Positions 2 to 14,221 of a stretch of DNA of 32,000 bases are shown piece after piece. The notes beneath the pieces are model-generated. The model had not been told where the DNA came from. It was given only the letters and a program-made list of their open reading frames with translations, and searched no databases. How positions within the stretch are numbered: position 1 is the stretch's first letter; each line of letters starts with the position of its first letter. Both the position numbers and the translations under genes were made by a program. The DNA lies in assembly GCA_041659405.1 (NCBI GenBank), contig JBAZYK010000001.1, positions 90,001 through 122,000 of the forward strand, read 5' to 3'. Origin of the DNA: Candidatus Altimarinota bacterium (GTDB lineage: Bacteria; Patescibacteriota; Gracilibacteria; UBA1369).

Positions 2-619
2 TTTGCAAATGGCTTGCGTACGGCTTTACGTCAGGATCCGAACATTATAATGGTGGGTGAAATTCGTGATCGTGAAACAATTGAAATTGCGATTGAAGCG
101 TCTTTAACAGGTCATTTGGTTTTATCAACAATTCATACAAACAGCGCGGTGGAAACTTTAACACGTATTGATAACATGGGAGTTCCGCCATTTTTGATGG
201 CTTCAACAATTGAACTTATTATTGCGCAGCGCTTGGTTAGAAAACTGTGCGATGCCTGCAAACAGCCCGATACTCCGAGTGCCGAGATGGTGGACAATGT
301 AAATCATGCATTAAAAAGCTTGCAGCCGACCGATGAAATCGAACCGGAAAAACTAAAAACCATGTCTTTCTTTAAGGCGGTTGGTTGTGATGTTTGTGAG
401 CATATCGGTTATAAAGGACGTCTTGGTTTATATGAAATTTTAAGAATGAATAATGAAATTCGCAAACTGGTTTTGGCCAGAGCGAGTTCTATAGATATAG
501 AAAAAGCGGCAATGAAAAATGGCATGGTTACTCTGGAACAAGCCGGAATTATTAAGGCTCTTAAAGGAGAAACTGCGCTGGACGAAATTTACCGCGTGGC
601 GAAGAGGATGGAGGAATAA
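2..619 (+). CDS. pilB: Type IV pilus / type II secretion ATPase (PilB/GspE family), C-terminal portion; 5' end lies outside the window
   Basis: The frame is open from nt 2; the listed start at 14 is only an in-frame TTG. It contains GEIRD, the His-box [12 protein letters not shown] and the tetracysteine cluster CDAC...CDVC typical of GspE/PilB hexameric ATPases. A PilC/GspF gene follows directly. Confidence 0.85.
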
Positions 620-677: not shown

Positions 678-1955
678 GTGCCGGAAAAACAATCGAAAGG
701 ATTTGGACAATCAGAAAACAAACAACTCTTTACTTTAAAAGCTGAAGAGTCAAAAGAGCCTATGCTGGATAAGCAAATTCAGCTTAATATTGCCGATGCC
801 CGCGTAGGCAAAATTCTCCTGCGTCAAAAGTTGGGTTACAATCACCTGACGGGGAATCCGATAATTGACTTTTATGGCCGTATAAATGGTTATTTTGTCG
901 ATCACACTAAAATCAAAATCAAAGATAAGGCAACCGTTTTTCGTTTGCTTGCGGTGATGATTAATGCCGGACTTTCGATTATTAAATCATTGAAAACTCT
1001 GGCTTCGCAGAATGAAAAAATCCCAAGACTCAGCAAAACTTTGCTGCAAATGGCGGACGCGATTGAAGGTGGAAAAAGTCTTTCCGGTGCCATGGAACAA
1101 TATCCCGAGATTTTCAGTGAAGCCGAAATTGGTATGGTACATGCCGGTGAGGCTTCGGGCCAACTTAATAAAACTTTGCGTGACCTGGCGGAAGATGTGG
1201 AAAAATCGGCCAGTTTAATGGGCAAAATCAAGGGCGCCCTGGTTTATCCAATTGCGATTATGGGGCTTGTAGTTGTGGTTGTTTTTGTGATGATGATTGT
1301 GGTTGTGCCGCAACTCAGTAAACTTTTTTCGCAAACCGGTCATGATTTGCCTTTGCCAACCCAGGTTCTGATGGGCATCAGTAATTTTTCAGTAAATTTT
1401 TGGCCACTGATTTTGTTGATAGCTTCGATAAGTTTTGTGGCGATTACCGCCTGGAAAAAAACTAAATCCGGAAAATATTTTTGGGATTTGATGCTGTTGA
1501 AATTGCCGATTTTTGGCAATGTGATCCAAAAAGGTACGTTGGCAAAATTCGCCCGTTCTTTTGGAAACCTGCTTGGTAGCGGCGTTCCGATTATTAAATC
1601 TTTGGAAATTGTGGGAAATGCAATTGGCAATGAAGTTTATAAAGAAAGACTTTTTTTAACCGCGGAAGATATGAAACGCGGTATTCCGATGGCCGAGAAT
1701 ATGGCTGAAAGCAAGCTTTTTCCGTCCATGCTTGTAAACATGATTGAAATCGGCGAACAAACCGCGCAGCTTGAAAACGTGACCAAAAAAGTTGCGGAAT
1801 TTTATGATGAAGAGGTTGATAACGTGGTTAACGCGCTGACTAAAGTGATGGAGCCGATGATTATGGTGATCGTTGGTGTGGTTGTTGGAGGAATCGTTGC
1901 GGCCATCATGCTGCCAATTATTCAACTTACAAATATCACTGGTGGATTTTCGTAA
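678..1955 (+). CDS. pilC: Type IV pilus platform protein (PilC/GspF family)
   Basis: 425 aa ORF with duplicated GspF-type helical regions (AGLSIIKSLKTL... and SGVPIIKSLEIV...). Three strongly hydrophobic segments: LVYPIAIMGLVVVVVFVMMIVVVP, FWPLILLIASISFVAITAW, MEPMIMVIVGVVVGGIVAAIMLPI. Sits next to pilB. The start is GTG at 678; an ATG at 762 is not excluded. Confidence 0.85.
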   Translation: MPEKQSKGFGQSENKQLFTLKAEESKEPMLDKQIQLNIADARVGKILLRQKLGYNHLTGNPIIDFYGRINGYFVDHTKIKIKDKATVFRLLAVMINAGLSIIKSLKTLASQNEKIPRLSKTLLQMADAIEGGKSLSGAMEQYPEIFSEAEIGMVHAGEASGQLNKTLRDLAEDVEKSASLMGKIKGALVYPIAIMGLVVVVVFVMMIVVVPQLSKLFSQTGHDLPLPTQVLMGISNFSVNFWPLILLIASISFVAITAWKKTKSGKYFWDLMLLKLPIFGNVIQKGTLAKFARSFGNLLGSGVPIIKSLEIVGNAIGNEVYKERLFLTAEDMKRGIPMAENMAESKLFPSMLVNMIEIGEQTAQLENVTKKVAEFYDEEVDNVVNALTKVMEPMIMVIVGVVVGGIVAAIMLPIIQLTNITGGFS

Positions 1956-1981: not shown

Positions 1982-3625
1982 ATGAACATCAAAAAATACA
2001 TTAAAGATCATAAAACAATGACGATGACAGTTGTTGGAATTTTGGCTACTGTGGCCACTGTTTCGGCAGTGTATTTTTCCAATGGTGGATTGTTTTCGGG
2101 AAAATTGATTGGATTGATTAACCCGGTTTCTATACCAAAAATACTACCGCCCATTACCGACTTTGGCGTAACCAATACCTATTTATCCGCCACTACTCTG
2201 GATTTGGCAGCGGCAAATCATAGTATTACTTTCACTTATGGTTTCAAGGCTACTAAAGCTCCCGATCTTTTCATTTATGTTCTGCCGAATGGGAGTAACA
2301 ATGATGTCAGTAAAGCTTTAAAAAAATGGGACTGGGCGGCTCTCAATCCGGTTGACGGCTATAATTCTGTTTCCTGGGATGGAATCGATACAAATACAAA
2401 TAAACCTGCCGCGGTTGGAACTTATTATTTTTATACTTATTACCTTCCATTTATTTTTGATAAAAATCCAAATACGGCTCTAACGTTACAATCAACGCCT
2501 TTTCAGGTAATAAATACACCCAAACTTATAATTCCGCCGATTCCGGATGTTCCACCACAGCAACCTGTTAAAATTCCGTTTAACGATACAACCATAGCCA
2601 ATATCACATCCACACCGGCCCAAATCGTTTTGGGGAAGGATGCCTTACAAGTTACCGTGAATACATCATTTATGAATGCCAACTATGCTGTAAGGCTGCA
2701 ATTTGATGTTGATCCGAGTGGGTCTTCTATTCAAAATCCCAATCAAACTATTCAGTGGAATGGTACAAATACTTATGTTTTTAATTTTGATGCTAATGCC
2801 CTGTCCGCTATGAGTGCCGGTACCCATAATTATCAGGTAGATTTGTATGATAGTAACGTTGGGACAAATGATTGGCGGATGGGCACTTTTACAGCTGTTC
2901 TCCCACAGGTTCTGCAACCTGTGAAAATTCCGGTTCCGGTTGTTCCGGTTGTTCCGGTTGTTCCGGTTGTTCCGGTCGTTCCAGCGGTTCCGGTGGTTCC
3001 CGTCGTTCCCGTCGTTCCACCTGCTCCGGTGGTTCCTCCTGCGGCTCAAACCCCCGGTTGTGCCGGATACTATGACATTCTTTTGAATTCCACTACCTGC
3101 CAACAATATGGGCCAGCTTTGGAATATGCAAAGACAAAAAAAATTATGACCGGTAATCCGGATGGCACATTTGGGCCTTATGATTACCTGCAACGTGACC
3201 AGATTTTGAAAGTGCTTAAGCTGGGCGATGCAAACGTCCCTGCCAACTTATGCAATAATGTAACACCATTTCCGGATGTTCCAAGTGTGCTTTGGTCTTG
3301 TAATTTAATCGCTGAAGCAAAACAAAACTTGATTATAACCGGTTATTTGGCTACGGGACTTTATATGCCTTCTAATCCGGTTAATCGCGCAGAATTTGCA
3401 ACGATGATGACCAGAATGTTGAAATCTAAATTTAATATTTCTGTTCCTTTGGATTCAGCAAAAAATTATAAAGATGTTCCACCAACCGGTTGGTACACCA
3501 ATTACGCAGCTTTCTTTTTTATGAATGGTTTGTTTCCGGGTGACTACATGAATCCACCCAAGCCAATGACCAGAGTTGAAGTAGCTCAAATTGTTTATAT
3601 GCTGCACGTTCTTGGAAAATTTTAG
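1982..3625 (+). CDS. Surface protein paralog 1: N-terminal membrane anchor, FlgD-Ig-like WDG module, Pro-Val linker, C-terminal triple SLH-like module
   Basis: 547 aa ORF starting 26 nt after pilC. The N-terminus MNIKKYIKDHKTMTMTVVGILATVATVSAVYFSNGGLFSG is shared with the ORFs at 3718 and 8168. Other motifs: YNSVSWDGIDTNTNKPAAVGTYYFYTYY (FlgD-Ig-like signature) and a PVVPVVPVV linker. The C-terminal PGCAGYYD block carries SLH-type motifs (FPDVP...ITGY...P..PVNRAEFATMMTRML; YKDVP...PMTRVEVAQIVYML). Confidence 0.8.
   Translation: MNIKKYIKDHKTMTMTVVGILATVATVSAVYFSNGGLFSGKLIGLINPVSIPKILPPITDFGVTNTYLSATTLDLAAANHSITFTYGFKATKAPDLFIYVLPNGSNNDVSKALKKWDWAALNPVDGYNSVSWDGIDTNTNKPAAVGTYYFYTYYLPFIFDKNPNTALTLQSTPFQVINTPKLIIPPIPDVPPQQPVKIPFNDTTIANITSTPAQIVLGKDALQVTVNTSFMNANYAVRLQFDVDPSGSSIQNPNQTIQWNGTNTYVFNFDANALSAMSAGTHNYQVDLYDSNVGTNDWRMGTFTAVLPQVLQPVKIPVPVVPVVPVVPVVPVVPAVPVVPVVPVVPPAPVVPPAAQTPGCAGYYDILLNSTTCQQYGPALEYAKTKKIMTGNPDGTFGPYDYLQRDQILKVLKLGDANVPANLCNNVTPFPDVPSVLWSCNLIAEAKQNLIITGYLATGLYMPSNPVNRAEFATMMTRMLKSKFNISVPLDSAKNYKDVPPTGWYTNYAAFFFMNGLFPGDYMNPPKPMTRVEVAQIVYMLHVLGKF
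2929..3045 (+). repeat. 9-nt tandem repeat (GTTCCGGTT-type) encoding a (PVV)n linker inside paralog 1
   Basis: Direct reading: ccggttccggttgttccggttgttccggttgttccggttgttccggtcgttcc... It creates spurious ORFs on other frames and strands (2872..3075 +, 2666..3193 -). Confidence 0.9.
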
Positions 3626-3676
3626 TGGTGATTTTGGGAATTTTCAGAAGCTGAATTTGCGCAATGTCCATTTTTG

Positions 3677-3685
3677 TGTTATGAT
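3677..3685 (+). promoter_or_regulatory. Candidate extended -10 promoter element (TGtTATGAT) for paralog 2
   Basis: TGnTATGAT lies about 33 nt upstream of the ATG at 3718. The block gcaatg...TGnTATnAT..tatgaaaa...aaaacaaatATGGACATCAA recurs upstream of paralog 3 (8112-8170). No convincing -35. Confidence 0.35.
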
Positions 3686-3717
3686 ACTATGAAAATAAAA
3701 ATTTAATCAAAACAAAT

Positions 3718-6700
3718 ATGGACATCAAAAAATACATTCAGGCTCATAGAACAATGACGATGGTCGTCGGTGGCATTTTGGCTACCGTGGTTACCGCAAG
3801 TGCGGTTTATTTTTCCAGTGGTGGATTGTTCTCGGGAAATTTGAGCGGTCTTAATATTAATGCACGACCGCAAGTTAACTTTGCGCCTGGCGTAAGTGAG
3901 CCATCTCTATCTTCCCCTACTCTTGATTTGGAAAACCCAAAAATTACTTTTACTTATGGTTTTAAAAAGGATGTAACTCCTACTGTTGATATTAGTGTTA
4001 TAGATAAAAATAGTGGTGCTGTATTAATGACCTGGGGGCTGACTCCTCCAAATGATAATAGTTATAATTCAATCTCTTGGGATGGAAAAGTTGGAAAGGC
4101 TGCGATACCTGGAAATTCGTATTTTTTCAGAACTTCTTACTCACTGGCGGGCAAGATGCAAATTGTTGAATCAAACCCTTTTCAGGCCGTGGCCCCACTT
4201 AATGTTAAACCGGTTGTGCAAATACCTTTAAGCGCTACTTGTACACCTTCAGCTATAACTGGAGTTGTAGGAGATACAATCACCTACACGGCAACTATTA
4301 AAGGTGGAGTTCCTCCATATAAAACTCGATGGAGTGAAAGTAAAGCAGATTTTCTAAAAAACGGCAGTTTGGCAGACAATGCCGGTACAAATGCATATAA
4401 AATTACGTATTCAAACGTTGGAGAGAAAACAACAATGGTTACTCAAGTTATTGATAATGAGAACAACACAATTAACGATATCACTTGTACTCCCGCTGTA
4501 ACTATTAACCTGGCACCTGCTAATGCGCAAGCAGGGCAACCAAATGCTCAAAATGCAAATCTTGCACTTCAAAATAACCCTCTAGCTAACAACGCTCAAG
4601 CAGGACAACCTGATGCTGTTCCGCCAGTGCAACTTAAGGATGTATGTAGTGCCTCTCCTCTAAACGGAAATGTGGGAGATACAATTACCTATACTGCAAA
4701 TATTTCCGGTGGAACTCCTCCATACACGACGCAATGGAGTAATTCAGATACCCCTAAAGTTACTTTCTGGGGCAATACTTATAAAATTGAATATAAAATT
4801 GCGGGGCCTAAAACAGTAACTTTAACAATTACTGATAAGGCCGGAGCCACGCTATCTGATCCTAAATGTCCTGGTGTGACCATTAACGAAAATCAGGCGG
4901 TGAATCAAATTGCTCCTAGTCCTATACAAAAAATTGGAGTCCCAACCAAAATCGTAGTGCAATGTGCTGCGACACCAAGTCCGGCCAATGTGGGCGATAC
5001 CGTAACATGGAAAGTTACCGGTAATGTGCCTGCGGGATCCGGATATTTATGGGATGGCAATATTATGCCCCCAATAAATCAACCAACCGCTACGGCTGTT
5101 TATCAAAATACTTCACCTAAAAATGTTTCGGTTAAAATCACCGCTCCTAATAAAGGATATCAGGATTCGGATGTGACTAACTGCACAACATTGACTGTTA
5201 ATGATTCTGGAAAACCGGCGTTGAGTAATTTTACACTTTCCGCCAGTTCTTATACTCTTGGTGATCCGAACAAATATATTACATTTGGAGGAACTTTAAG
5301 CGGTGCTGGTGCTCCCAACGCTTCCAATACAAACCTGGTGTTTTCAATCCTGGATTCAAATAATATTAAAGTGCTGAATTGGACATCAATAAATCAGTCA
5401 AATGGCCCGGTAAATGGTTTATGGAATGGCTTACACCTGGATAATAGTCCCGTTACCCCGGGTCAATATTTCTTTACGGCCCAGGCTGTTAAAGGAATTC
5501 TTTCTTCACCAATTATAAAATCCGATCCGTTTATGGTTAATCCGGCTGCTCCAGCTGCTCAAAAAATTGATCTTGGTAAAGTAGGGCTTGTTCAAAATGG
5601 CCAACCAGCTGCTTCAAAAGATTTTCTTGTAAGCTGTTCTACCAATGCTTCGTCTTCAACAAAAGTTGGTGATTCAGTAACTTGGACAGTTAAACCTTCG
5701 TTCGGATTACTTCCATCCGGTATGACTTATAAATGGGGTGGAGGATATGGCAATGCAACTAGTGCATCGTTATCTCAGGGACCTTCACTTGTTACTTCAT
5801 ATTCAACCGCTGGAGCCGTTGCACCTGTTACTGTAGCTTTGACAGCTTCCGGTTATAATCCAAGAACTTTCACATGTACTCCGACAATTACTATTGCCGC
5901 CGCACAACCATCTGCACAAAAAGTTGTTGGACTGCCCGGTAAATTGGGTTCAGGTTCAGGCTCTGATTTGGGTTCTGGTTCAGGTTCAGGCTCTGATTTG
6001 GGCTCCGGCTCGGGTTCTGGCTCTGATTTGGGATCTGTTTCTGGGTCTGGTTCTGGCTGCGTAGGCACCACTTGCTCAACTACCGGTAACACAATTATTC
6101 CTAAAGAAGAACCGGTCGCTATCGTAGACCAACCGGTGGATAATTCAGATAATACTCCGGTCGAAGATAACACTCCTGCGTCTGATATTATTGAAACTCC
6201 CGTGGATAATACTCCTGCGTCTGATCTTCCTGAAAATCCCCCAATCGATAATCCACAACCACCGGCTCCAGCTTCAGCACAAATCCCCGGCTGTGCTGGT
6301 TATTATGATGATGAACTGACTTTGGGTTCTGCCCTATGCAAACTATATGATGCTGCTTTGGAATATGCAAAGACTTACAACTTTATGACCGGTAATGCAG
6401 ATGGCAACTTCGGGCCTCATGATAACTTACAACGTGATCAAATTGCGAAAATAGCGCTTGAGATTGGAAATAAATTCGTTGTTGGCACCGATTATTGTAA
6501 TGGCGTTCCTTCATTTCCGGATGTTCCACTTTCCGCCTGGTCATCACAATATCTCTGCTATGCAAAACAATTTGGCATTGTAACCGGTTATGGCGATGGG
6601 CTTTATAGGCCAAGTAATCCGGTTACCAACTCGGAATTTGTGGCCATAATGTCTCGAATGCTGAAGGTAAATTATGGGATACTCATCCCTTTGGATGCAT

Positions 6701-6870
6701 CAAAAAACTATCTGGATGTTTCAACGAGTGACTGGTACGCACGTTACTCAGCTTTCTTCTTTAAATGGGGTTTGATTGTAGGTGATTACCTGTATCCGGA
6801 AAAGCCAACAATAAGAATCGACGTCGTTCAAGTTATTTATATGATGCACATTCTTTTTGGAAAGTTTTAG
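3718..6870 (+). CDS. Surface protein paralog 2: N-terminal anchor, FlgD-Ig-like modules, four Cys-bounded PKD/Ig-like modules, GSGSGSGSDL and acidic linkers, C-terminal triple SLH-like module
   Basis: 1050 aa ORF. N-terminus MDIKKYIQAHRTMTMVVGGILATVVTASAVYFSSGGLFSG. WDG...G.YFF signatures: SISWDGKVGKAAIPGNSYFFRTSY and GLWNGLHLDNSPVTPGQYFFTAQAV. Repeated modules such as CTPSAITGVVGDTITYTATIKGGVPPYKTRWS and CSASPLNGNVGDTITYTANISGGTPPYTTQWS. C-terminal PGCAGYYD block with SLH motifs (FPDVPLSAWSSQYLCYAKQFGIVTGYGDGLYRPSNPVTNSEFVAIMSRML). Confidence 0.8.
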   Translation: MDIKKYIQAHRTMTMVVGGILATVVTASAVYFSSGGLFSGNLSGLNINARPQVNFAPGVSEPSLSSPTLDLENPKITFTYGFKKDVTPTVDISVIDKNSGAVLMTWGLTPPNDNSYNSISWDGKVGKAAIPGNSYFFRTSYSLAGKMQIVESNPFQAVAPLNVKPVVQIPLSATCTPSAITGVVGDTITYTATIKGGVPPYKTRWSESKADFLKNGSLADNAGTNAYKITYSNVGEKTTMVTQVIDNENNTINDITCTPAVTINLAPANAQAGQPNAQNANLALQNNPLANNAQAGQPDAVPPVQLKDVCSASPLNGNVGDTITYTANISGGTPPYTTQWSNSDTPKVTFWGNTYKIEYKIAGPKTVTLTITDKAGATLSDPKCPGVTINENQAVNQIAPSPIQKIGVPTKIVVQCAATPSPANVGDTVTWKVTGNVPAGSGYLWDGNIMPPINQPTATAVYQNTSPKNVSVKITAPNKGYQDSDVTNCTTLTVNDSGKPALSNFTLSASSYTLGDPNKYITFGGTLSGAGAPNASNTNLVFSILDSNNIKVLNWTSINQSNGPVNGLWNGLHLDNSPVTPGQYFFTAQAVKGILSSPIIKSDPFMVNPAAPAAQKIDLGKVGLVQNGQPAASKDFLVSCSTNASSSTKVGDSVTWTVKPSFGLLPSGMTYKWGGGYGNATSASLSQGPSLVTSYSTAGAVAPVTVALTASGYNPRTFTCTPTITIAAAQPSAQKVVGLPGKLGSGSGSDLGSGSGSGSDLGSGSGSGSDLGSVSGSGSGCVGTTCSTTGNTIIPKEEPVAIVDQPVDNSDNTPVEDNTPASDIIETPVDNTPASDLPENPPIDNPQPPAPASAQIPGCAGYYDDELTLGSALCKLYDAALEYAKTYNFMTGNADGNFGPHDNLQRDQIAKIALEIGNKFVVGTDYCNGVPSFPDVPLSAWSSQYLCYAKQFGIVTGYGDGLYRPSNPVTNSEFVAIMSRMLKVNYGILIPLDASKNYLDVSTSDWYARYSAFFFKWGLIVGDYLYPEKPTIRIDVVQVIYMMHILFGKF
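5945..6057 (+). repeat. 30-nt tandem repeat (~3.5 copies) encoding a GSGSGSGSDL linker inside paralog 2
   Basis: Direct reading: ggttctggttcaggttcaggctctgatttg repeated with minor changes. It explains the antisense ORFs 5853..6173 and 5891..6079. Confidence 0.9.
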
Positions 6871-6900
6871 GGATGAGTTTTAGGATAATGCGATGTTCAA

Positions 6901-6952
6901 TGTTGGCCGGCTGCTTGCGGTCAGGAAATCCGCACATCTTGTGACAGGTTTC
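6901..6952 (+). repeat. Direct repeat copy A flanking the AbrB/PIN pair
   Basis: tgttggccggctgcttgcggtcaggaaatccgcacatcttgtgacaggtttc versus 7931-7982 tgtcggccggttgcttgcggtccatgtattcgcacatctcgtgacaggtttc (9 mismatches in 52). Confidence 0.85.
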
Positions 6953-6980
6953 TATCAGCTAATGTTTAATCTGTTTCATG

Positions 6981-7005
6981 AAAAGTCCCCCGGGGGACTT
7001 TTTTT
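6981..7005 (+). terminator. Rho-independent terminator downstream of paralog 2
   Basis: aaaaGTCCCCCGGGGGACttttttt: a perfect 14-nt GC-rich palindrome (6985-6998) followed by a 7-T run, about 110 nt after the stop codon at 6870. Confidence 0.75.
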
Positions 7006-7119
7006 GAAATTGGCGATTCTTCTCTTCCTGAAGCCAGAATTTTCGGATTACCGGAATCTATTTGGGATTGTTTTTCCATCCTGGCAAGATTTTTTTGGTT
7101 TTCAGATTGTGAGCGGGCC
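6985..7119 (-). repeat. Inverted, diverged copy of cassette module Y
   Basis: The reverse complement of 6985-7119 aligns at roughly three quarters identity by eye with 13083-13241. Shared strings include ...gattccggtaatccgaaaattctggcttcaggaagagaagaatcgccaat..gtcccccgggggac. Confidence 0.75.
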
Positions 7120-7183
7120 TTGATTTTTCATTAGTAATTATTCATACTGAAAGTAGAAAAGTTGGAATTTTAAACTTTTGTTT

Positions 7184-7459
7184 ATGAAGAAAATTAGAAT
7201 CGTTCGCACTCAATCCAAAGGCATGGTAACTATTCCGGCGGAATTCCGCCAAAAATTGGGCATAAATGAAAACAGTCTACTGGAAGCGAAAATTGTAAAA
7301 AAAGGAATCTTGTTTTTAAAAATTAATTATAATTCATTGAAAATAGAAAAAAAACAGCCTGGCGAAATTTATTCAGAAAAACAGATTCAAGAGTGGCTTT
7401 TGCGTGACAAATTAGATGCTCGCACCCAAGCCAAAGTAAAAAAACTCTTAAATAAATAA
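7184..7459 (+). CDS. AbrB/SpoVT-type antitoxin (VapB-like)
   Basis: MVTIPAEFRQKLGINENSLLEAKIVKKGILFLK matches the SpoVT-AbrB swapped-hairpin motif. Small ORF ending 6 nt before a PIN gene. ATG at 7184 is preferred over the in-frame TTG at 7178. Confidence 0.7.
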   Translation: MKKIRIVRTQSKGMVTIPAEFRQKLGINENSLLEAKIVKKGILFLKINYNSLKIEKKQPGEIYSEKQIQEWLLRDKLDARTQAKVKKLLNK

Positions 7460-7465
7460 TCCGCC

Positions 7466-7900
7466 ATGATAAAGCTTTTCCTTGATGCAAATATTCTTTT
7501 TGCAGCCACTGCATCTATCAGTGGTGGTTCAAGAGCGCTTTTTGACTTAGCTCAAAAAAAATTGATATCCCTTGTTTCGAGTGAGTATGCTTTACATGAA
7601 GCAAAAATTAATATCGAAAAGAAGCTTGGGCACGAAAAACTCGTTGATTTCTATAAACTTGTGAGCTGGCTTACTGATGTTTATAAAAAGCCACTTACAA
7701 AAAGTGAACTGAGCGCTTTTCAAGAAATTATTGTTGCCAAAGATATTCCAATTTTAGCTGGAGCAAAAAAACTGGAGGTTGATTTCCTTATCACACTCGA
7801 TAAAAAAGACTTTCAAAATATGAAAATGAAAGCGACAAAATTTCCATTTCAAATTCTTTCTCCCGGCGATTTTTTGAGAGCATTTCCGTATAACACGTAG
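7466..7900 (+). CDS. PIN-domain toxin (VapC-like)
   Basis: 144 aa with N-terminal LFLDANILFAA (first PIN acidic residue) and the C-terminal ITLDKKDF motif. Tightly coupled to the upstream AbrB-type gene in the canonical antitoxin-first order. Confidence 0.7.
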   Translation: MIKLFLDANILFAATASISGGSRALFDLAQKKLISLVSSEYALHEAKINIEKKLGHEKLVDFYKLVSWLTDVYKKPLTKSELSAFQEIIVAKDIPILAGAKKLEVDFLITLDKKDFQNMKMKATKFPFQILSPGDFLRAFPYNT

Positions 7901-7930
7901 CGCCGGCTGATTATTCCGCCATTATGTCGA

Positions 7931-8006
7931 TGTCGGCCGGTTGCTTGCGGTCCATGTATTCGCACATCTCGTGACAGGTTTCGACCCTGGCAAGATTTTT
8001 TTTCGG
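7931..8006 (+). repeat. Direct repeat copy B: matches 6901-6952 and is then joined directly to sequence matching 7077-7103
   Basis: After gtgacaggtttc the copy continues gaccctggcaagattttttttcgg, which matches catcctggcaagatttttttggtttt at 7077-7103. Copy B therefore lacks the ~126 nt (6953-7078) that holds the terminator hairpin and most of the inverted Y module. Confidence 0.75.
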
Positions 8007-8111
8007 ATCATGCGCTTTTTTATTTTGGCTTACAGATGCGAACTTTCAACTATTTTCGCCGTCCCGGGACGGAATTTTCACAGAATGTTCTTTGCAATGA
8101 GTGATACTTTG

Positions 8112-8120
8112 TGGTATCAT
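8112..8120 (+). promoter_or_regulatory. Candidate extended -10 promoter element (TGgTATCAT) for paralog 3
   Basis: TGnTATCAT lies about 48 nt upstream of the ATG at 8168. The surrounding block is homologous to the region upstream of paralog 2. Confidence 0.35.
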
Positions 8121-8167
8121 AGTATGAAAAACAAAAATTTATTTAAAAATATTTAACCAAAACAAAT

Positions 8168-11038
8168 ATGGACATCAAGAAATTTATTTCAGAAAAGAAA
8201 GTAGCACTGCTTGTTACAGCAGGTGTTTTAGTTGCCGTAACCGCAGGTGCGTTTTACTTCTCCCAAGGTAGTTTGTTTAAGGGGGCTTTACCTGGACTTA
8301 GGCCAGTAGGCGTAAGTGGAGTTACTGTGACACCTACAACTTTTGATTCAACAAAAGATGGGCAGTCTGTAGATATTACTTTAGACTATTACTTTAACCA
8401 AAGTGATGGGTATAATAGTAAAGTAAATATTAAATTGTTCAAAAATGGAGACTCTTCTCCTGTAGTGGATGTGGATAAGGTTTCCACTGATGGAAAAATT
8501 AATTTTTTTGAATGGCATACTCCTTATTCCAAGGCGTTAGATGGTACTTATACTTTCAAACTTGATTATTTATATAAAGGGCCACTTGATGTTAATGGTG
8601 TTACAAAAACAGTTACTTCCCCACCTTTCACAATTCTGACGTCGGTACCTCCTGGTGGAATGCCCCCGGGTATTCCTGTTGCAGCTATTAATAAAGTTAC
8701 CGTGATACCTGCTAGTTACGAATATTCTGTTGGACAAAGCGCAAATATGAGCTTTACCCTGGATTACTTTTTCCAAAAAGATGATGGAGATAAAGACCCA
8801 AAAGTAACAATCACAGTAATGAAGTCCGGTGGTGGTCTGCTTAAAGATACTGTAGCCAATCCTGCTATGGCCTTATCAGGTAACCAACTTGTAACTAATG
8901 GTGGTGAAAATAAATTTTCCTGGGATAAATCATATGATCCAAATTTAGATGGTACATATTATTTTAAACTTGATTATTCATATCAAAATTCGGATCCGGT
9001 TCCGCAACTTGTAACTTTGTCAGTTAAATCACCAACTTTCACAATTAATCATGTTGCTGCTGTAAAACCAGATGCAAGCTGTAAACCATCTTTAAGCAGT
9101 GTCGTTTCAGGCTCATCAGTGAGTTGGACTGCAACGGTTACTCCTCAAGGCGCTTTGACACCTCTATATCATTGGAGTGGTGATGTAGCTGATGTTTCTC
9201 AGCTTGATATGAAATCACCTGAGTTAAGCTTTACTACTTCCTATAAAACTGTTGGCAAAAAAGCTGTTTATTTCAAGATTCCAGAAGGAATTAATAGTTA
9301 TAAATCTGTACTTTGTGATGGTTTGATGGTTAATGCGTCTGAACAAAAAGTTCCAACTTTAACCGGAACCGCTACCCCAATCAAATATACCTTGGGTCAA
9401 GGTGATATTAGTTTTGATGTAAAGGTTGCTAATGCAGCAGTTGGCAATCATGTAACATTTGCAGAAAAAGGATATCCAGATGCAATTTTGTTAGACAGGC
9501 CATTAATTAATGGCGCTACCGGTTATAAATTCAATCCAACAGATGTAAAATTGGCTGCCGGAAAATATGTAATGCTTGCGACATTATATGATGTAAGTGT
9601 TCAAAAACCTTACAGTGCCAAAAGTATTTCTCTTGATTCTGTGGAAATTCCATTTGAAGTTGTTTCAGCTGGTCAACCTCCTGCTGATAAAGATTTCCCA
9701 GCGGACCTGGCTTGTACTGTTAAACCACTGGTTTCAGCAAAAGTTGGTGATTCCGTTACTTGGTCTGTTAATAACATGATCTCAGGTACTACTTATAGTT
9801 GGAGTGTTTCTGGTTCTGGCGCTTATACAGGTACAAATAAGAATCTCTTGAAGCAGACTGCCCGTTCTTTTACGACTACTTACCCAGGTGCGGTAACGGC
9901 TAATATGACTGTGACTTTGGAACAAGCTGGCTATACTACAAAGAGTGTTGACTGTGGAGAACTTGAAATTGTAGCTGCTGCGGCTCCTGCTGATAAAGAT
10001 TTCCCAGCGAACTTGGCTTGTACTGTTCAACCACAAGGATCGGCAACGGTTGATAATAACGTAACTTGGACTGTTGCTAATGCCCCATCAGGTACAACTT
10101 ATAGTTGGAGTGTTTCTGGTTCTGGCGCTTATACAGGTACAAATAAGAATCTCTTGAAGCAGACTGCCCGTTCTTTTACGACTACTTACCCAGGTGCGGT
10201 AACGGCTAATATGACTGTGACTTTGGAACAAACTGGTTACAAGACAACAACTTTAGCCTGTGGAGAACTTGAAATTGTAGCTGTTTCTCCTCCAGGTCCA
10301 AACTGTGTCGGTTCAAGCTGTCCTCCTACTCCTACCGATTGTGTCGGTTCAAGCTGTCCTCCTGATCGTACTCCCGACTGCGTTGGTACCGCTTGTAATC
10401 CTGAACCTACTCCAACACCAACACCAACACCTACACCTACTCCAACTCCAACACCTACACCTGTTCCGGGATGTGCAGGTTACTATGACATTCCGTTGAA
10501 TTCTACTACATGCCAAAAATATTCTACTATTTTGCAGGATGTAAAAGATCGCGGCATTATGACAGGTACCGCAGATGGCAATTTTGATCCTTATGGTTAC
10601 TTACAACGTGATCAGATTTTGAAGGTGCTTAAGCTGGGTAGACTTGTAAACGAGAAATTATGTACTAATTTGTCACCATTCCCGGATGTTCCTCGTGGTC
10701 TTTGGTCTTGCAGCTTAATTGCTGAAGCACAACAGGCCGGCTGGATTACAGGTTATTTGGATACAGGACTTTACATGCCTTATAATCCGGTTAATCGTGC
10801 TGAATTCACAGCAATATTGTTCCGCATGTTAACTCGTACTTTTAACTTCCATGCTCCTTTGGATGCATCAATTAATTTTAGCGATGTTCCAACAGACGTT
10901 TGGTTCAGCCGTTTTGCGGCTGCCGCCTATAAGTTGGCCTGGTTTAGTGGAACGTTTATGTATCCTGATAAGCCAATGACCAGAATTGAAGTTGCCCAGA
11001 TCATTCATCAATTGTATGTAAATGGACAAATAAATTAA
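8168..11038 (+). CDS. Surface protein paralog 3: N-terminal anchor, duplicated beta-sandwich modules, Cys-bounded Ig-like modules (two in tandem), CVGxxC and PT linker, C-terminal triple SLH-like module
   Basis: 956 aa ORF. N-terminus MDIKKFISEKKVALLVTAGVLVAVTAGAFYFSQGSLFKG. Duplicated ...LDGTYTFKLDY / ...LDGTYYFKLDY modules. Modules CKPSLSS..., CTVKPLVSAKVGDSVTWSV..., CTVQPQGSATVDNNVTWTV.... Motif CVGSSCPP x2 plus CVGTAC, then (PT)n. C-terminal PGCAGYYD block with SLH motifs (FPDVPRGLWSCSLIAEAQQAGWITGY...PVNRAEFTAILFRML). Confidence 0.8.
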   Translation: MDIKKFISEKKVALLVTAGVLVAVTAGAFYFSQGSLFKGALPGLRPVGVSGVTVTPTTFDSTKDGQSVDITLDYYFNQSDGYNSKVNIKLFKNGDSSPVVDVDKVSTDGKINFFEWHTPYSKALDGTYTFKLDYLYKGPLDVNGVTKTVTSPPFTILTSVPPGGMPPGIPVAAINKVTVIPASYEYSVGQSANMSFTLDYFFQKDDGDKDPKVTITVMKSGGGLLKDTVANPAMALSGNQLVTNGGENKFSWDKSYDPNLDGTYYFKLDYSYQNSDPVPQLVTLSVKSPTFTINHVAAVKPDASCKPSLSSVVSGSSVSWTATVTPQGALTPLYHWSGDVADVSQLDMKSPELSFTTSYKTVGKKAVYFKIPEGINSYKSVLCDGLMVNASEQKVPTLTGTATPIKYTLGQGDISFDVKVANAAVGNHVTFAEKGYPDAILLDRPLINGATGYKFNPTDVKLAAGKYVMLATLYDVSVQKPYSAKSISLDSVEIPFEVVSAGQPPADKDFPADLACTVKPLVSAKVGDSVTWSVNNMISGTTYSWSVSGSGAYTGTNKNLLKQTARSFTTTYPGAVTANMTVTLEQAGYTTKSVDCGELEIVAAAAPADKDFPANLACTVQPQGSATVDNNVTWTVANAPSGTTYSWSVSGSGAYTGTNKNLLKQTARSFTTTYPGAVTANMTVTLEQTGYKTTTLACGELEIVAVSPPGPNCVGSSCPPTPTDCVGSSCPPDRTPDCVGTACNPEPTPTPTPTPTPTPTPTPTPVPGCAGYYDIPLNSTTCQKYSTILQDVKDRGIMTGTADGNFDPYGYLQRDQILKVLKLGRLVNEKLCTNLSPFPDVPRGLWSCSLIAEAQQAGWITGYLDTGLYMPYNPVNRAEFTAILFRMLTRTFNFHAPLDASINFSDVPTDVWFSRFAAAAYKLAWFSGTFMYPDKPMTRIEVAQIIHQLYVNGQIN
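9677..10288 (+). repeat. Tandem duplication, 2 x 306 bp (102 aa Ig-like module), inside paralog 3
   Basis: Both units start with cctgctgataaagatttcccagcg. 9791-9925 is identical base for base to 10097-10231 (135 nt), whereas the preceding ~70 nt (KPLVSAKVGDSVTWSVNNMIS vs QPQGSATVDNNVTWTVANAPS) and the following ~40 nt are diverged. Confidence 0.9.
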
Positions 11039-11112: not shown

Positions 11113-11141
11113 TTGCCTTTCTCACAAAAAAATTATATATT
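11113..11141 (+). promoter_or_regulatory. Candidate sigma70-type promoter of the pilin gene
   Basis: TTGCCT (11113-11118), a 17-nt spacer, then TATATT (11136-11141), 29 nt upstream of the ATG at 11170. Confidence 0.45.
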
Positions 11142-11169
11142 TATTAAGAATTTCTTTAACAAAATACAC

Positions 11170-11697
11170 ATGAAAACAAACTTAAAAAATTGGTCACAGG
11201 GTGCACTCAAGGGCTTCACGCTCATTGAATTACTCATCGTGATCACAATTATCGGTATCCTAGCAGTGGCTTTGTTGCCATCAGTACTAGGTGCTCCAGC
11301 CCGCGCAAGAGACGCGGCTAGAAAAGCGGATTTGAATAACATTGTTGCGGGATTGGAAACTTATAATAGTGATAATCAAAAGTATCCTGATACTGCTGGT
11401 AATTGTAGTGCTGTTGATGGTCTAACAAATTTCTCACAATATTTTCAGGGGGGCAAAATACCAAAAGATCCTCAGACAGGTTCATATCTATACTGTGGAG
11501 TTACAGGGAATGGGTCAGTGTCATATTACATCGTTTCCAAAGTTGAAATCGCAGGTGATGGAAATGCTTATTACGCTAGCGCTCCTTCAACTTCTATATT
11601 AGCTGATGTTTTTGGAGGTGCGACAATAATTGATCAATGTAAGCCAAAAAAATCAGCTGCAGCAAATGATTGTAATTACTATTTAATTGTAAAATAA
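11170..11697 (+). CDS. Type IV pilin / pseudopilin with class III (prepilin) signal
   Basis: MKTNLKNWSQGALKG|FTLIELLIVITIIGILAVALLPS is the canonical prepilin peptidase site G/FTLIEL with Glu at +5. C-terminal Cys pair (DQCKPKKSAAANDCNYY) as in pilin D-regions. The ORF-track start at 11113 (TTG) overlaps the putative promoter and adds 19 non-pilin residues, so ATG 11170 is preferred. Confidence 0.85.
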   Translation: MKTNLKNWSQGALKGFTLIELLIVITIIGILAVALLPSVLGAPARARDAARKADLNNIVAGLETYNSDNQKYPDTAGNCSAVDGLTNFSQYFQGGKIPKDPQTGSYLYCGVTGNGSVSYYIVSKVEIAGDGNAYYASAPSTSILADVFGGATIIDQCKPKKSAAANDCNYYLIVK

Positions 11698-11750: not shown

Positions 11751-11891
11751 GTTGTTTAAAGAATTGCGCTGCGTTTTTTGTACCAATGTGTTCGGATTGA
11801 GTGGGGCGCGCGGCGCCTGCACTGCTTGCGCACTTTCGCGCTGACCTTTGGATTGCACCACTTTAGGTGAGTCAAAAAACTCCGTAGCATT

Positions 11892-12025
11892 TTAAAACAA
11901 TTTTGCCATAATTCAAAAGTGGCGTGATTTGCGTTTTGGTATTCCGATTTTACGGCTTACATATGCCACATTCTCAATTCGCACCCTTCCTCCCCGGGGA
12001 GGGATTACCGGCCAAGGCGCACTTT
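11892..12025 (+). repeat. Non-coding module X, copy 1 (~135 nt)
   Basis: ttaaaacaattttgccataattcaaaagtggcgtgatttgcgttttggtattccgattttacggcttacatatgccacattctcaattcgcacccttCCTCCCCGGGGAGGgattaccggccaaggcgcacttt. Only 2-3 differences from copy 2. Contains the 14-nt palindrome 11989-12002. Confidence 0.9.
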
Positions 12026-12090
12026 CTTGTGTCGGCGGTTTTGGCTCGATGGGGTTGGAGTGTGCCCGGGGCTGACGAATTTTTTCAAAT

Positions 12091-12249
12091 AAAGAATTGG
12101 ACAAGAGGACGCAGCCGTTTGGTTCGCAAAGCCAAAAAACAAAGAATTTGCCAATATGGGAAAATAGTCCACAATCGACTCCGGTAATCCGTAAATTTTG
12201 GCTTCAGGAAAAGAATAATCGCCAATTTTAAAAAAGTCCCCCGGGGGAC
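12091..12249 (+). repeat. Non-coding module Y, copy 1 (~159 nt), ending in the palindrome GTCCCCCGGGGGAC
   Basis: aaagaattgg...ttcgcaaagccaaaaaacaaagaatttgccaatatgggaaaatagtccacaatcgactccggtaatccgtaaattttggcttcaggaaaagaataatcgccaattttaaaaaaGTCCCCCGGGGGAC. Palindrome at 12236-12249, preceded by A6 (12230-12235), which is a hairpin plus T6 on the minus strand. Confidence 0.9.
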
Positions 12250-12253
12250 ATCC

Positions 12254-12350
12254 GATGATTTTATGCCGATTTCATAATCAGTTTAATTTTTTTTAATGTT
12301 GGAAGATTAAACTGGACAGCGAATCTGGAATTTTTGCTAAACGGATTTTT
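12254..12350 (+). promoter_or_regulatory. Module Z, copy 1: conserved upstream region / 5' leader of PIN cassette gene 1
   Basis: gatgattttatgccgatttcataatcagttt...ttttaatgttggaagattaaactggacagcgaatctggaatttttgctaaacggattttt directly precedes the ATG. It differs from copy 3 (14278-14374) at about six positions by eye. Contains a CATAAT -10-like hexamer and the inverted motif TTATG-N7-CATAA. The function (promoter, operator or leader) is inferred. Confidence 0.5.
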
Positions 12351-12752
12351 ATGGAAACTATCATGTTGGACAGCTCGGTTTGGATATCGTTATTGGGACA
12401 GGATGTGAACACGGAAAATGCTGAAAAAATTCATGATCACATTAAATCACTAAAATGTGAGATAATATTACCCATAATTATTTATGTAGAAGTTACAAAT
12501 AATATTATTAAACTGGATAAAACCGGCTTGATTAGGGGGAATTTCGAGGAAATTATTAGATTAAATAAAATAAAAATCCTTTTTCCGTCAGAGAAATTTT
12601 GGTACAATGCGATTGTTAATTGTACAAAAGGAATAAGGCTTAAAACGCTCGATTTGCTGATTCTTAACAGTGTCCTTGAATATAAAGTCGGAGAATTCTT
12701 CACTTTTGATAAAAAACTTAAAGCAGCATATGATTTAATCAAAAAATTATGA
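12351..12752 (+). CDS. PIN-domain protein (VapC-like), cassette 1
   Basis: 133 aa. The four PIN acidic positions are readable: MLDSSVWI (D), IIYVEVTNN (E), LKTLDLLIL (D), FFTFDKKL (D). Paralogous to the ORFs at 13454 and 14375. Confidence 0.8.
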   Translation: METIMLDSSVWISLLGQDVNTENAEKIHDHIKSLKCEIILPIIIYVEVTNNIIKLDKTGLIRGNFEEIIRLNKIKILFPSEKFWYNAIVNCTKGIRLKTLDLLILNSVLEYKVGEFFTFDKKLKAAYDLIKKL

Positions 12753-12874
12753 AAAAATCTGTAAAAAGAAAATCAAAAAAACTGGAGGAGCAAAAACTGC
12801 TCATAAAAATCCGTTTGGCACGTGTAAAAATACCGGGCAATGATTCCGTAAAGTACATACAAAGCAACAGGTAA
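12749..12874 (+). CDS. Small basic ORF (41 aa) overlapping the PIN stop codon (ATGA); candidate cognate partner
   Basis: MKKSVKRKSKKLEEQKLLIKIRLARVKIPGNDSVKYIQSNR. Below the ORF-track length cut-off and found by hand. The C-terminus DSVKYIQSNR is conserved in the equivalent ORFs at 13857 and 14775. Confidence 0.55.
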   Translation: MKKSVKRKSKKLEEQKLLIKIRLARVKIPGNDSVKYIQSNR

Positions 12875-12939
12875 GCTTGAGGATACGAGAGCGTGAGGTC
12901 AAAAGCCCTCCCCTTAAATCCGGCGTTTTTTTGTTGTCT

Positions 12940-13074
12940 TTAAAACAATTTTGCCATAATTCAAAAGTGGCGTGGTTTGCGTTTTGGTATTCCGATTTTA
13001 CGGCTTACATATGCCACATTCTCAATTCACACCCTTCCTCCCCGGGGAGGGATTACCGGCCAAGGCGCACTTTT
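12940..13074 (+). repeat. Non-coding module X, copy 2
   Basis: Near-identical to 11892-12025. Palindrome CCTCCCCGGGGAGG at 13037-13050. Absent from cassette 3. Confidence 0.9.
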
Positions 13075-13082
13075 GTTCGTAT

Positions 13083-13241
13083 AAAGAATTGCGCAGGGTA
13101 ACGCAGAAGTTTGGCTCGCAAAGCCAAAAAACAAAGAATTTGCCAATATGGGAAAATGATTCGCAACAGACTCCGGTAATCCGTAAATTTTGGCTTCAGG
13201 AAGAGAAGAATCGCCAATTTTAAAAAAGTCCCCCGGGGGAC
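13083..13241 (+). repeat. Non-coding module Y, copy 2
   Basis: Aligns end to end with 12091-12249 and 14063-14221. Palindrome at 13228-13241, preceded by A6 (13222-13227). Confidence 0.9.
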
Positions 13242-13336
13242 AATTTATGAAGCAGGAACCCGGCGGAGTGCCATACGGTGGCTTGCCGCTGCGGAGGTGA
13301 AATTTGGGGCGGTAATTATGCGCACTTTTTCAGGCC

Positions 13337-13412
13337 AATGATTTTATGCCGATTTCATAATCCGTTTAAAAAATTTTAATGTCGAAAGATTAAACTGGAC
13401 AGCGAAATCTAG
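13337..13412 (+). promoter_or_regulatory. Module Z, copy 2 (partial; its 3' part is replaced by unrelated sequence)
   Basis: aatgattttatgccgatttcataatccgtttaaaaaattttaatgtcgaaagattaaactggacagcgaaatct matches copies 1 and 3. The similarity is lost about 40 nt before the start codon. Confidence 0.45.
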
Positions 13413-13453
13413 CCGGCGGTTAGGTTTTTCGGTTATCATTGATTATGTTACTT

Positions 13454-13876
13454 ATGAAAACGGCACTTTTGGACAGCTCGGTTTGGATATCGTCTTTTAT
13501 CAAAGATGTTCATGAACAAAAAGTGAAATCAATTTTTGATAAGTTAATGATGGAAAATGCAAAAATAATATTACCGAAAATTGTTTATGCTGAGATTATG
13601 AATAACCTCATTCGCGTTGATCACACTTGCAAACTTTCCCGCAAAGCAAAGGAAAATCTATTAAATAATGTAAAAATAAGTGTTATCGACTTTAAAGCGG
13701 AATTCTGGCATAAGAAAATCGAGTACTATGCAAAATCGGTCCGGCTCAAAACTATGGATCTTTTGATTCTTGCATCTGCATTTGAATTTAATGTAAATGA
13801 GTTTTATACTTTTGATGTGAAATTGATGAATGCTTTTAATATTTTAAAATCGCGCCATGATAAAAAAAACAATTAA
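13454..13876 (+). CDS. PIN-domain protein (VapC-like), cassette 2
   Basis: MKTALLDSSVWISSF... aligns with METIMLDSSVWIS of the paralogs. Acidic positions D (LLDSS), E (IVYAEIMNN), D (LKTMDLLIL), D (FYTFDVKL). ATG 13454 chosen by alignment; in-frame TTG 13439 and ATG 13445 are possible. Confidence 0.8.
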   Translation: MKTALLDSSVWISSFIKDVHEQKVKSIFDKLMMENAKIILPKIVYAEIMNNLIRVDHTCKLSRKAKENLLNNVKISVIDFKAEFWHKKIEYYAKSVRLKTMDLLILASAFEFNVNEFYTFDVKLMNAFNILKSRHDKKNN

Positions 13877-13991
13877 ACGAAAGAAACAGGAAAAACGGGA
13901 TTTAAAATTTCTTATCAAGGAGCTTGATAAGGTGCAGATTAGCGTTGGAAAGAAGTTTGATTCCGTAAAGTTCATACACAGTAATAGATAA
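13857..13991 (+). CDS. Small basic ORF (44 aa) overlapping the 3' end of PIN gene 2 by 20 nt
   Basis: MIKKTIKRKKQEKRDLKFLIKELDKVQISVGKKFDSVKFIHSNR. Conserved C-terminus DSVKFIHSNR. Confidence 0.55.
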   Translation: MIKKTIKRKKQEKRDLKFLIKELDKVQISVGKKFDSVKFIHSNR

Positions 13992-14062
13992 GCCTAAGGA
14001 TGCGAGAGTGAGGTCTATTCAAAGAGACTTATCTTTACCCCTGGAGGGCTTTTTTGTTGTCT

Positions 14063-14221
14063 AAAGGATTGCGCAAGGGAACGTAGCAGTTTGGCTCGCA
14101 AAGCCGAAAAACAAAGAATTTGCCAATATGGGAAAATAGTCCACAATCGACTCCGGTAATCCGTAAATTTTGGCTTCAGGAAGAGAAGAATCGCCAATTT
14201 TAAAAAAGTCCCCCGGGGGAC
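14063..14221 (+). repeat. Non-coding module Y, copy 3
   Basis: Aligns with 12091-12249 and 13083-13241. Palindrome at 14208-14221, preceded by A6 (14202-14207). Here Y directly follows the terminator-like junction because module X is missing. Confidence 0.9.

Follow-up and report, generated by a model that had tools for sequence, protein, structure and literature searches.

Three adjacent open reading frames (ORFs) that lie between the type IV pilus genes pilB-pilC and the pilin gene, in a 32,000-nt stretch of Candidatus Altimarinota DNA (contig JBAZYK010000001.1, positions 90,001 to 122,000; hereafter the window), probably encode Sec-exported surface proteins that are anchored to the cell wall by S-layer homology (SLH) domains and carry variable immunoglobulin (Ig)-like domains. 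We consider these proteins, here paralogs 1 to 3, to be adhesin-like or S-layer-associated rather than pilus components, and assign this reading a probability of about 70%. A first-pass annotation of the window had described three paralogous surface proteins at this place, and their coordinates, shared ends and flanking genes were all reproduced. Peribacteria and other bacteria of the Candidate Phyla Radiation (CPR) are thought to live attached to other cells, and their envelope proteins are almost uncharacterised; the locus shows the classical Gram-positive principle of SLH anchoring at work in this group.

Conserved SLH anchor and variable bodies

The three same-strand ORFs share a C-terminal module of 190-194 residues, which opens with PGCAGYYD at aa 358, 857 and 767 (nt 3053, 6286 and 10466) and is 56-60% identical between paralogs. 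BLASTP between these C-terminal parts gave E values of 1e-65 to 1e-70, far beyond chance. The anchors and bodies of the three proteins are laid out as follows.

1982..3625 (+ strand): paralog 1, 547 aa, composed of an N-module, two beta-rich domains, a Pro/Val linker and an SLH triplet
2912..3052 (+ strand): Pro/Val-rich (PVV)n linker ahead of the paralog 1 anchor
3053..3622 (+ strand): paralog 1 SLH triplet, PGCAGYYD to end (Pfam SLH, 49.8 bits)
3718..6870 (+ strand): paralog 2, 1050 aa
4165..4887 (+ strand): two tandem Cys-containing Ig/PKD-like modules of paralog 2, aa 150-264 and 284-390, mutually 45-49% identical
5281..5493 (+ strand): FlgD_ig domain of paralog 2, aa 522-592 (PF13860, 32 bits against a cut-off of 27, E 1.3e-7)
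5935..6285 (+ strand): low-complexity linker of paralog 2, GSGSGSDL repeats followed by an acidic/Pro-rich stretch, with a 49-nt repeat family
6286..6867 (+ strand): paralog 2 SLH triplet (Pfam SLH, 53.5 bits)
8168..11038 (+ strand): paralog 3, 956 aa
8288..9067 (+ strand): two tandem copies of the first-ectodomain type in paralog 3, aa 41-160 and 172-300, 33-47% identical
9667..10293 (+ strand): recent tandem duplication of an Ig/PKD-like module in paralog 3, about 80% identical as protein
10301..10465 (+ strand): Cys/Pro-rich linker of paralog 3, CVGSSCPP three times, then (PT)n
10466..11035 (+ strand): paralog 3 SLH triplet (Pfam SLH, 31.2 bits)

All three C-modules scored above the Pfam SLH gathering cut-off of 20.8 bits. 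When a C-module profile was run against the PDB, the SLH domains of Sap (3PYW and 6BT4, E 1e-16) were matched, as were those of SbsB and SpaA. The AlphaFold (AF2) model of the paralog 1 C-module (predicted local distance difference test score, pLDDT, 88; predicted template modelling score, pTM, 0.85) consists of six helices, two per repeat. Further Foldseek analysis of this model retrieved 3PYW with a probability of 1.0 and template modelling (TM) scores of 0.71/0.76, together with entries beginning 6CW and 7SV (overall TM 0.64-0.76); its sole significant PDB neighbours were the SLH trimers of Sap and SpaA, including complexes with pyruvylated N-acetylmannosamine (ManNAc). These data agree with the SLH homology proposed in the first-pass annotation and indicate that, by Pfam score, PDB profile and predicted fold, the C-module is a genuine triple SLH cell-wall anchor.

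In SpaA, pyruvylated ManNAc is contacted by Trp13, Gly29 and Arg43, the contacts being contributed by the TRAE Arg of one repeat, the GIIxG Gly of the next and the Trp of a third (PMC6081394). The Gly29 equivalent is kept in 9/9 repeats of the three paralogs, and the Arg43 equivalent occurs in all repeats of paralogs 1 and 3 (QRDQ / NRAE / TR[VI]E) and in 2/3 repeats of paralog 2. The Trp13 equivalent is found in repeats 2 and 3 (FPDVxxxxW and Y/FxDVxxxxW). By analogy with SpaA, two of the three SLH grooves would thus be canonical. Repeat 1 is marked by a Cys pair (C-x-G-Y-Y-D ... C), which the wider family shares without exception. A PS_pyruv_trans gene was not seen in the flanks of the chosen genes (~10 kb either side), and a literature search found no paper tying CsaB to CPR. 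A sortase route found no match, as the three paralogs have no C-terminal LPXTG motif with hydrophobic tail; their C-termini (...HVLGKF, ...ILFGKF and ...VNGQIN) end within the last SLH helix.

The same anchor is widespread. HMMER, run exhaustively against 1.84 billion cluster representatives, returned 1254 proteins at E<1e-30, and the Cys-pair SLH triplet stands at the extreme C-terminus in 92 of the 150 top matches, behind bodies that range from 210 to 1081 aa. The Cys-pair subfamily comprises at least ~90 clusters at 50% identity. A genome search with the three-sequence C-module alignment found one genome locus, from an uncultured Candidatus Peribacteria bacterium (L001), and a weak match bore a Peregrinibacteria name (P0006); the organism was accordingly placed as a Peribacteria-type CPR bacterium. 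With full paralog 1 as the query, a word-indexed search of 5.8 billion proteins gave only 6 matches, probably because the query was swamped by its Pro/Val repeat.

The middle regions differ in length and module content, as the first-pass annotation had stated, but some modules are common to the paralogs. Paralogs 1 and 2 have a first ectodomain in common (42% over aa 1-190), Ig/PKD-like modules at aa 610-732 of paralog 2 and aa 483-710 of paralog 3 are 35-43% identical, and the first-ectodomain type of paralog 3 recurs at aa 46-170 of a 634-aa protein of L001 (47%). The recent duplication in paralog 3 is visible at the DNA level as paired blocks 306 nt apart, 9667-9774/9973-10080 (79%) and 9782-9987/10088-10293 (92%). 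Of the FlgD-Ig and PKD labels given earlier, the former stands for a single domain, that at aa 522-592 of paralog 2, which is the only middle domain passing a Pfam cut-off; Pfam PKD_4 reached 16-18 bits against a cut-off of 27, and most segments were unmatched. A contig in ENA (k141_184062, 167 kb; L002) is near-identical to the window, has the same locus and encodes an identical paralog 2 protein. Its paralog 1 (8274-9908) has 544 aa against 547 aa in the window, a difference of one 9-nt unit in the (PVV)n linker in otherwise 99.5% identical sequence, and thus a repeat-length polymorphism.

Replacement of a whole domain was seen directly between two strains. The DNA of L001 and of a Logan contig (L020) is 99.5% identical through pilB, pilC, a gene for a 277-aa protein and codons 1-41 of the SLH gene. 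Past codon 41, 452 nt in L001 and 331 nt in L020 show no detectable similarity to each other, after which 99.2% identity resumes to the end of the comparison. The left breakpoint lies directly after a GGLYKG motif. These data indicate that whole first domains were exchanged between otherwise identical strains. In Peribacteria, strain variation in large extracellular proteins has been reported as a major source of genotypic variety (PMC4736985). Replacement of the tip domain is what would be expected of surface molecules that recognise hosts or are exposed to phage.

Alternatively, the paralogs could be interchangeable, self-assembling subunits of an S-layer lattice, like Sap/EA1 or the Campylobacter fetus sap family. 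Their SLH anchor, their size of 60-110 kDa and the presence of several paralogs with conserved ends would suit such a role, paralog 3 is preceded by a promoter-like sequence of its own (TTGCAA-17-TATCAT with TG), and S-layer proteins, as well as type IV pili, are reported to be encoded in Peribacteria (PMC4736985). However, the bodies are strings of small Ig-like modules in variable number with no sign of a crystallisation domain, and the size range of the family and its many architectures resemble those of S-layer-associated proteins. Moreover, a 5316-aa protein of the window has an SLH triplet too, which shows the anchor to be in general use in this organism. A lattice of alternative subunits is therefore unlikely in our estimation.

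The conserved N-terminus

The first ~45 residues are also common to the three paralogs and read M[DN]IKK[YF]I, a hydrophobic stretch and YFSxG[GS]LF[SK]G. BLASTP between the N-terminal parts gave E values of 1e-11 to 1e-28, and the DNA of this module is 81% identical over 134 nt between paralogs 1 and 2. We refer to it as the type-B N-module; in the features below, a slash marks the candidate site of signal peptidase I (SPase I).

1982..2116 (+ strand): paralog 1 N-module (aa 1-45), supported by an alignment of 24 homologous N-termini; K-rich start, 23 uncharged residues, candidate site VSA(29)/VYF, then FSNGGLFSGKL
3718..3852 (+ strand): paralog 2 N-module, candidate site ASA(29)/VYF
8168..8299 (+ strand): paralog 3 N-module, candidate site AGA(28)/FYF, then SQGSLFKGALP

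Column counts were taken over the 24 aligned type-B N-termini and numbered relative to an invariant Gly. The start resembles M-x-[IF]-K-x-[FY]-[IL], with Lys at -26 and -25, and an uncharged span of 22-23 residues precedes the invariant Gly. Column -8 is G/V/A/T/S in 24/24, column -6 is Ala in 22/24 and column -3 is [FL]. On the C-terminal side of the Gly, L(+2) was found in 19 sequences and F(+3) in 18, followed by K/Q/S at +4; Gly(+5) occurs in 23 sequences, L(+7) in 17 and P(+8) in 10. The conserved GxLFxG motif pointed out in the first-pass annotation is thus borne out, and it keeps a fixed spacing in ~20 family members that are <50% identical overall. So is its statement that this region is not a prepilin signal and has no obvious lipobox, since G/F[TS]L[IL]E is absent from all three paralogs and none has a Cys in aa 1-45. 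Motifs for the Tat route or for sortase were likewise absent, and candidacy of the motif as an N-glycosylation sequon was rejected, N-G-S/T being present in some members only.

The type-B module matched no model of Pfam or NCBIfam, and NCBIfam scans of whole proteins as well as isolated N-termini yielded none of signal type. A hidden Markov model (HMM) of the module, applied to ~300 kb of fetched loci, matched only type-B SLH proteins and one FlgD_ig protein of 277 aa (L001 4666-5499), which has the module without the SLH anchor; the module therefore appears specific and separable from the anchor. In the window it is followed by a FlgD_ig-like domain and in the homologue P0002 by a Cys-containing Ig-like module, and it is therefore more than the opening strand of one domain. 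In word-indexed protein searches, a 21-sequence profile of the N-module found nothing at E<=1, and a profile of the N-module plus the first domain found the 277-aa protein of L001 only.

From these sequences, the N-terminus is more likely a Sec signal peptide that is cut by SPase I after the near-invariant Ala. The features of a Sec signal, a positive n-region, a hydrophobic core and small residues at -3 and -1 of the putative site, are all present across the 24 N-termini. With Ala(-6) and a small residue two positions before it, at -8, the N-termini follow the (-3,-1) rule of SPase I, from which the sites listed above were predicted, and the distance from the last Lys to Ala(-6) is 18-19 residues, compared with 17-21 in plain signal peptides of the same family. 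The type-B N-terminus occurs in ~20 members, about a quarter of the SLH subfamily, and the majority have ordinary signal peptides, e.g. MKKLLLSMIFTLTFAPFAFA/ANP, so that the mature protein works with a free N-terminus. In addition, the domain beside the N-module is the one replaced between strains and is thus expected to be exposed at the distal tip, and the linkers of a wall-spanning type, (PVV)n, GSGSGSDL/acidic and CVGSSCPP/(PT)n, adjoin the SLH end and not the helix.

The same data can be read as a double tether, in which the helix stays in the membrane as an uncleaved signal anchor (N-in, C-out) and the SLH triplet sits on the wall, so that the protein forms a strut between membrane and wall or a spacer of a periplasm-like space. 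The uncharged span is of fixed length and as long as a membrane helix, the aromatics at -4 and -3 (Y/F) and the Lys at +4 are placed as at a membrane interface, and the start motif and small helix residues (G/A at -19 and -17) are conserved at <50% overall identity, as is typical of a retained segment. However, the (-3,-1) rule is obeyed in 24/24 sequences, with Ala itself in 22/24, and ~three quarters of the same SLH subfamily have ordinary cleavable signals. Nor does a helix-adjacent domain that swaps between near-identical strains behave like a membrane-proximal domain buried under the wall, and the wall-spanning linkers are not found by the helix. Retention of the helix is therefore the less probable, though possible, reading.

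Tentatively, the type-B N-terminus could also be a dedicated signal, not described before, for the sorting or processing of surface proteins in Peregrinibacteria, one that would direct some SLH and FlgD_ig proteins to a certain export route or site and leave a functional mature N-terminal peptide; this, too, we hold to be improbable at present. The conserved mature peptide could, for example, dock to a partner or a neighbouring subunit. The type-B coding sequence may in addition serve as the upstream homology arm for tip-domain swaps between strains. The N-module offers a compact candidate for an export signal specific to this lineage, and one that is open to test.

Gene order around the pilus genes

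The genes bordering the three paralogs, and the elements between and ahead of them, are the following.

14..619 (+ strand): 3' part of pilB, type IV pilus assembly ATPase (Pfam T2SSE, E 1e-57)
678..1955 (+ strand): pilC, platform protein, left border of the insertion (Pfam T2SSF, E 3.5e-55)
1961-2002, 3697-3738 and 8147-8188 (+ strand): leader and start region, common to all paralogs (76-88% identical)
7178..7900 (+ strand): MazE-type antitoxin (7178-7459) and PIN toxin (7466-7900), between paralogs 2 and 3
11113-11697 (+ strand): type IV pilin, right border of the insertion (Pfam N_methyl and T2SSG; KG/FTLIE prepilin site)

The pilin, with MKTNLKNWSQGALKG/FTLIELL... at its prepilin site, was also delimited as 11170..11697 (+ strand). 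The spacing of 26 nt between the end of pilC and the start of paralog 1, noted in the first-pass annotation, was found as well, and no terminator-like site was found in the pilC-paralog 1 or paralog 3-pilin gaps. From the position of the genes and the short gap, the earlier annotation had suggested a functional link of the paralogs to the pilus.

We examined this link by synteny. In L001 and L020 the order is pilB-pilC-[277-aa type-B protein without SLH]-[634- or 593-aa type-B SLH protein]-pilin. These two loci are 99.5% identical to each other, the PilC of both is 79% identical to that of the window and their full-length PilB is 85.5% identical to the window PilB. The window with L002, L001 and L020 therefore represent one lineage and are not independent evidence of linkage to pil genes. 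When metagenomes were searched with pilC as the starting point, eight loci were obtained, their PilC being 62-72% identical, and gene order in them was determined by ORF reading. The pilin (GFTLIE) directly follows pilC in five of the eight (L014, L016, L017, L018 and L019); at the pilC-pilin junction of L015 (4664-11892) the place of the SLH paralogs is taken by unrelated ORFs, among them ones of 568 aa and 1100 aa, the neighbourhood in L013 is without a pilin, and the L012 sequence stops at pilC. SLH genes of the type-B or Cys-pair kind were present at the pilC junction in 0/8. From the opposite direction, no pil gene was found within 8-10 kb of six independent distant type-B SLH loci (L004-L007, L008, L021, L022, L023). 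Their neighbours include Band_7, Acyl_transf_3 and class A penicillin-binding protein (PBP) genes (L004-L007), Mur ligase and Wzy (L008), a glycosyltransferase and a FlgD_ig protein (L021), and a beta-helix protein, a small SLH protein and Acyl_transf_3 (L023).

As sister loci are without these genes and distant members lie away from pil genes, the trio is a lineage-specific insertion, and its presence between pilus genes in one lineage only makes a role in the pilus unlikely. The unrelated ORFs in L015 further suggest that the pilC-pilin junction is a recurrent insertion site. The 5316-aa protein is encoded at 16009-31959 and has, besides its own SLH triplet near the C-terminus, repeats of FG-GAP, TSP3 and other types; orthologues of it, 33-59% identical, directly follow the pilin in L001 (8333-12868), L016 (6334-8478), L018 (2089-6792) and L019 (12464-21259). 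Judged from these gene orders, the surface gene conserved beside the pilus operon is this giant and not the three paralogs, and the ancestral order is pilB-pilC-pilin-giant surface protein, to which this lineage has added the three paralogs, the MazE/PIN pair and three tandem PIN cassettes.

A pilus-accessory function, in which the SLH proteins connect the pilus with the envelope, or form or line its passage across wall and S-layer, would account for genes placed between pilC and pilin in the window/L002, L001 and L020, for the 26-nt gap and for the lack of a terminator-like site on both sides. However, all contigs with the linkage belong to one lineage, five sister loci have the pilin straight after pilC, and the six independent, distant loci that combine this N-module with the anchor lie away from pil genes. 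In addition, the junction behaves as an insertion site, with a toxin-antitoxin pair here and unrelated ORFs in L015, copy number varies (2 vs 3), and one copy is without the anchor altogether. Such a function is thus very improbable. Related genomes show the genes unlinked to pil genes, which speaks against the functional link proposed earlier and removes a tempting but unsupported idea of the paralogs as parts of the pilus apparatus. Kinship to the CPR Pam donor-strand pili (bioRxiv 10.64898/2026.03.03.709456) was likewise considered and found no evidence, Pam proteins having ordinary signal peptides and no SLH.

The ~20 nt 5' of each ATG are conserved across the three paralogs, which indicates that the duplications took the leader along. 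These leaders are A-rich (…AAAACAAAT directly before ATG) and have no Shine-Dalgarno-like purine run ahead of the start codons. The MazE/PIN pair, absent from the first-pass annotation, is flanked by 56-nt direct repeats (6897-6952 and 7927-7982; 82% identical), which suggests either insertion of a cassette or a duplicated inter-paralog spacer.

Downstream of the pilin, positions 11890-14940 hold three tandem units of ~1 kb with one PIN-domain gene each (12351-12752, 13439-13876 and 14375-14782). The units share a conserved non-coding part of 223 nt (12079-12301, 13071-13293 and 14051-14273; 73-91% identical), and every unit has a minus-strand hairpin, GTCCCCCGGGGGAC, followed by a T-run. The ORFs 11924-12187 and 12972-13223 cross this conserved non-coding part and are spurious. 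The array is missing from L001, L020 and L017, and Rfam gave no match across it; tRNA and Rfam scans of the whole window were empty. On the minus strand, 14984-15652 encodes a coiled-coil-like ORF of 222 aa with four tandem 57-nt repeats (19 aa, RFAEFEKKMDAKMDEKFDL), homologues of which adjoin the pilin in L001 and L017. The pilin itself is 44% identical between the window and L020 (11892-12446), compared with 79% for PilC and 85% for PilB, and its globular part evolves at about the pace of the SLH proteins.

A gene for an Acyl_transf_3 membrane acyltransferase lies just 3' of or near type-B SLH genes in three independent lineages (L004 11249-12361, L007 12577-13710 and L023 8845-9945), with Band_7 upstream and a class A PBP downstream in two of them. 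These surroundings may represent a conserved wall-modification neighbourhood of the type-B SLH family.

Proposed surface arrangement and comparison with known systems

In the arrangement that we propose, the proteins would be held non-covalently on the wall of a monoderm Peribacteria cell, with the variable Ig-like domains facing outside. The K-rich start and the hydrophobic core of 18-19 residues would direct the protein to Sec, and SPase I would cut after A29 in paralogs 1 and 2 and after A28 in paralog 3. The SLH triplet is predicted to fold as a three-pronged spindle and to bind a peptidoglycan-linked, probably pyruvylated, secondary cell-wall polymer. The Pro-, Gly/Ser- or Cys-rich linker would then span the wall, and the Ig-like modules would project from it with the N-terminal domain at the tip. 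Diversification would proceed by tandem duplication and by whole-domain replacement between the conserved ends, as seen directly between L001 and L020. In a cell with an attached way of life, the proteins would likely serve in adhesion or in varying the surface, as S-layer-associated proteins.

Several observations weigh against this reading. The adhesive role comes from the architecture only, and Pfam searches of ten middle segments gave sub-threshold matches only, most segments matching nothing. The full-length AlphaFold model of paralog 1, built from a 3-sequence alignment, had a pLDDT of 36.7 and was unusable. Within the anchor, repeat 1 is without the canonical Trp and has the Cys pair instead, and repeat 2 of paralog 2 reads TNSE instead of TRAE, so that its Arg is lost. 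The 22-23 uncharged residues up to the invariant Gly also suit a membrane-spanning anchor, and a conserved start and post-site motif are unusual for a disposable signal peptide. Moreover, co-transcription with pilC is possible in the window lineage, given the short gap after pilC and the missing terminator-like site, which would amount to co-regulation at most.

The anchoring principle and the logic of the paralog family are already known from Firmicutes; the Cys-pair variant of the SLH triplet, the type-B N-module and the documented swap of a tip domain are new here. Among SLH proteins of monoderms (PF00395 / PS51272), such as Sap/EA1 and the S-layer-associated BSL proteins of Bacillus anthracis, SpaA/SlhA of Paenibacillus alvei and SdbA/OlpB of Clostridium thermocellum, the same three tandem repeats are found, with a predicted three-pronged spindle and conserved equivalents of Gly29 and Arg43 in the window proteins. 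One anchor is likewise combined with many passenger domains, and its C-terminal position is that of the clostridial anchoring proteins. In contrast to classical SLH domains, the Cys pair of repeat 1 (CxG[FY]xD-x6-8-C) replaces the Trp region in the window proteins, the host belongs to the CPR, and a conserved N-module is present on about a quarter of the window-type members.

This N-module resembles the YSIRK-G/S and SipW-cognate (TasA/CalY, TIGR04088) signals in concept, as a sequence-conserved export signal on unrelated passengers, and signals of the SipW class have a conserved motif beside their cleavage site. However, there is no sequence match to either, and the motif of the window proteins follows the hydrophobic core. 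The FlgD_ig likeness (PF13860) is seen in an SWDG/TWDG signature, and the 277-aa partner in L001/L020 matches FlgD models (E 1e-9); unlike FlgD proper, the window modules have no relation to flagellar hook assembly, and most of them fall below profile cut-offs. Conserved ends with exchangeable bodies are shared with the sapA homologues of Campylobacter fetus and the extracellular proteins of Candidatus Peribacter (PMC4736985), and whole-domain differences at the strain level (L001 vs L020) are as in recombining surface-protein families. Unlike those families, the window gives no evidence of programmed switching by promoter inversion or silent cassettes, and all copies look expressible.

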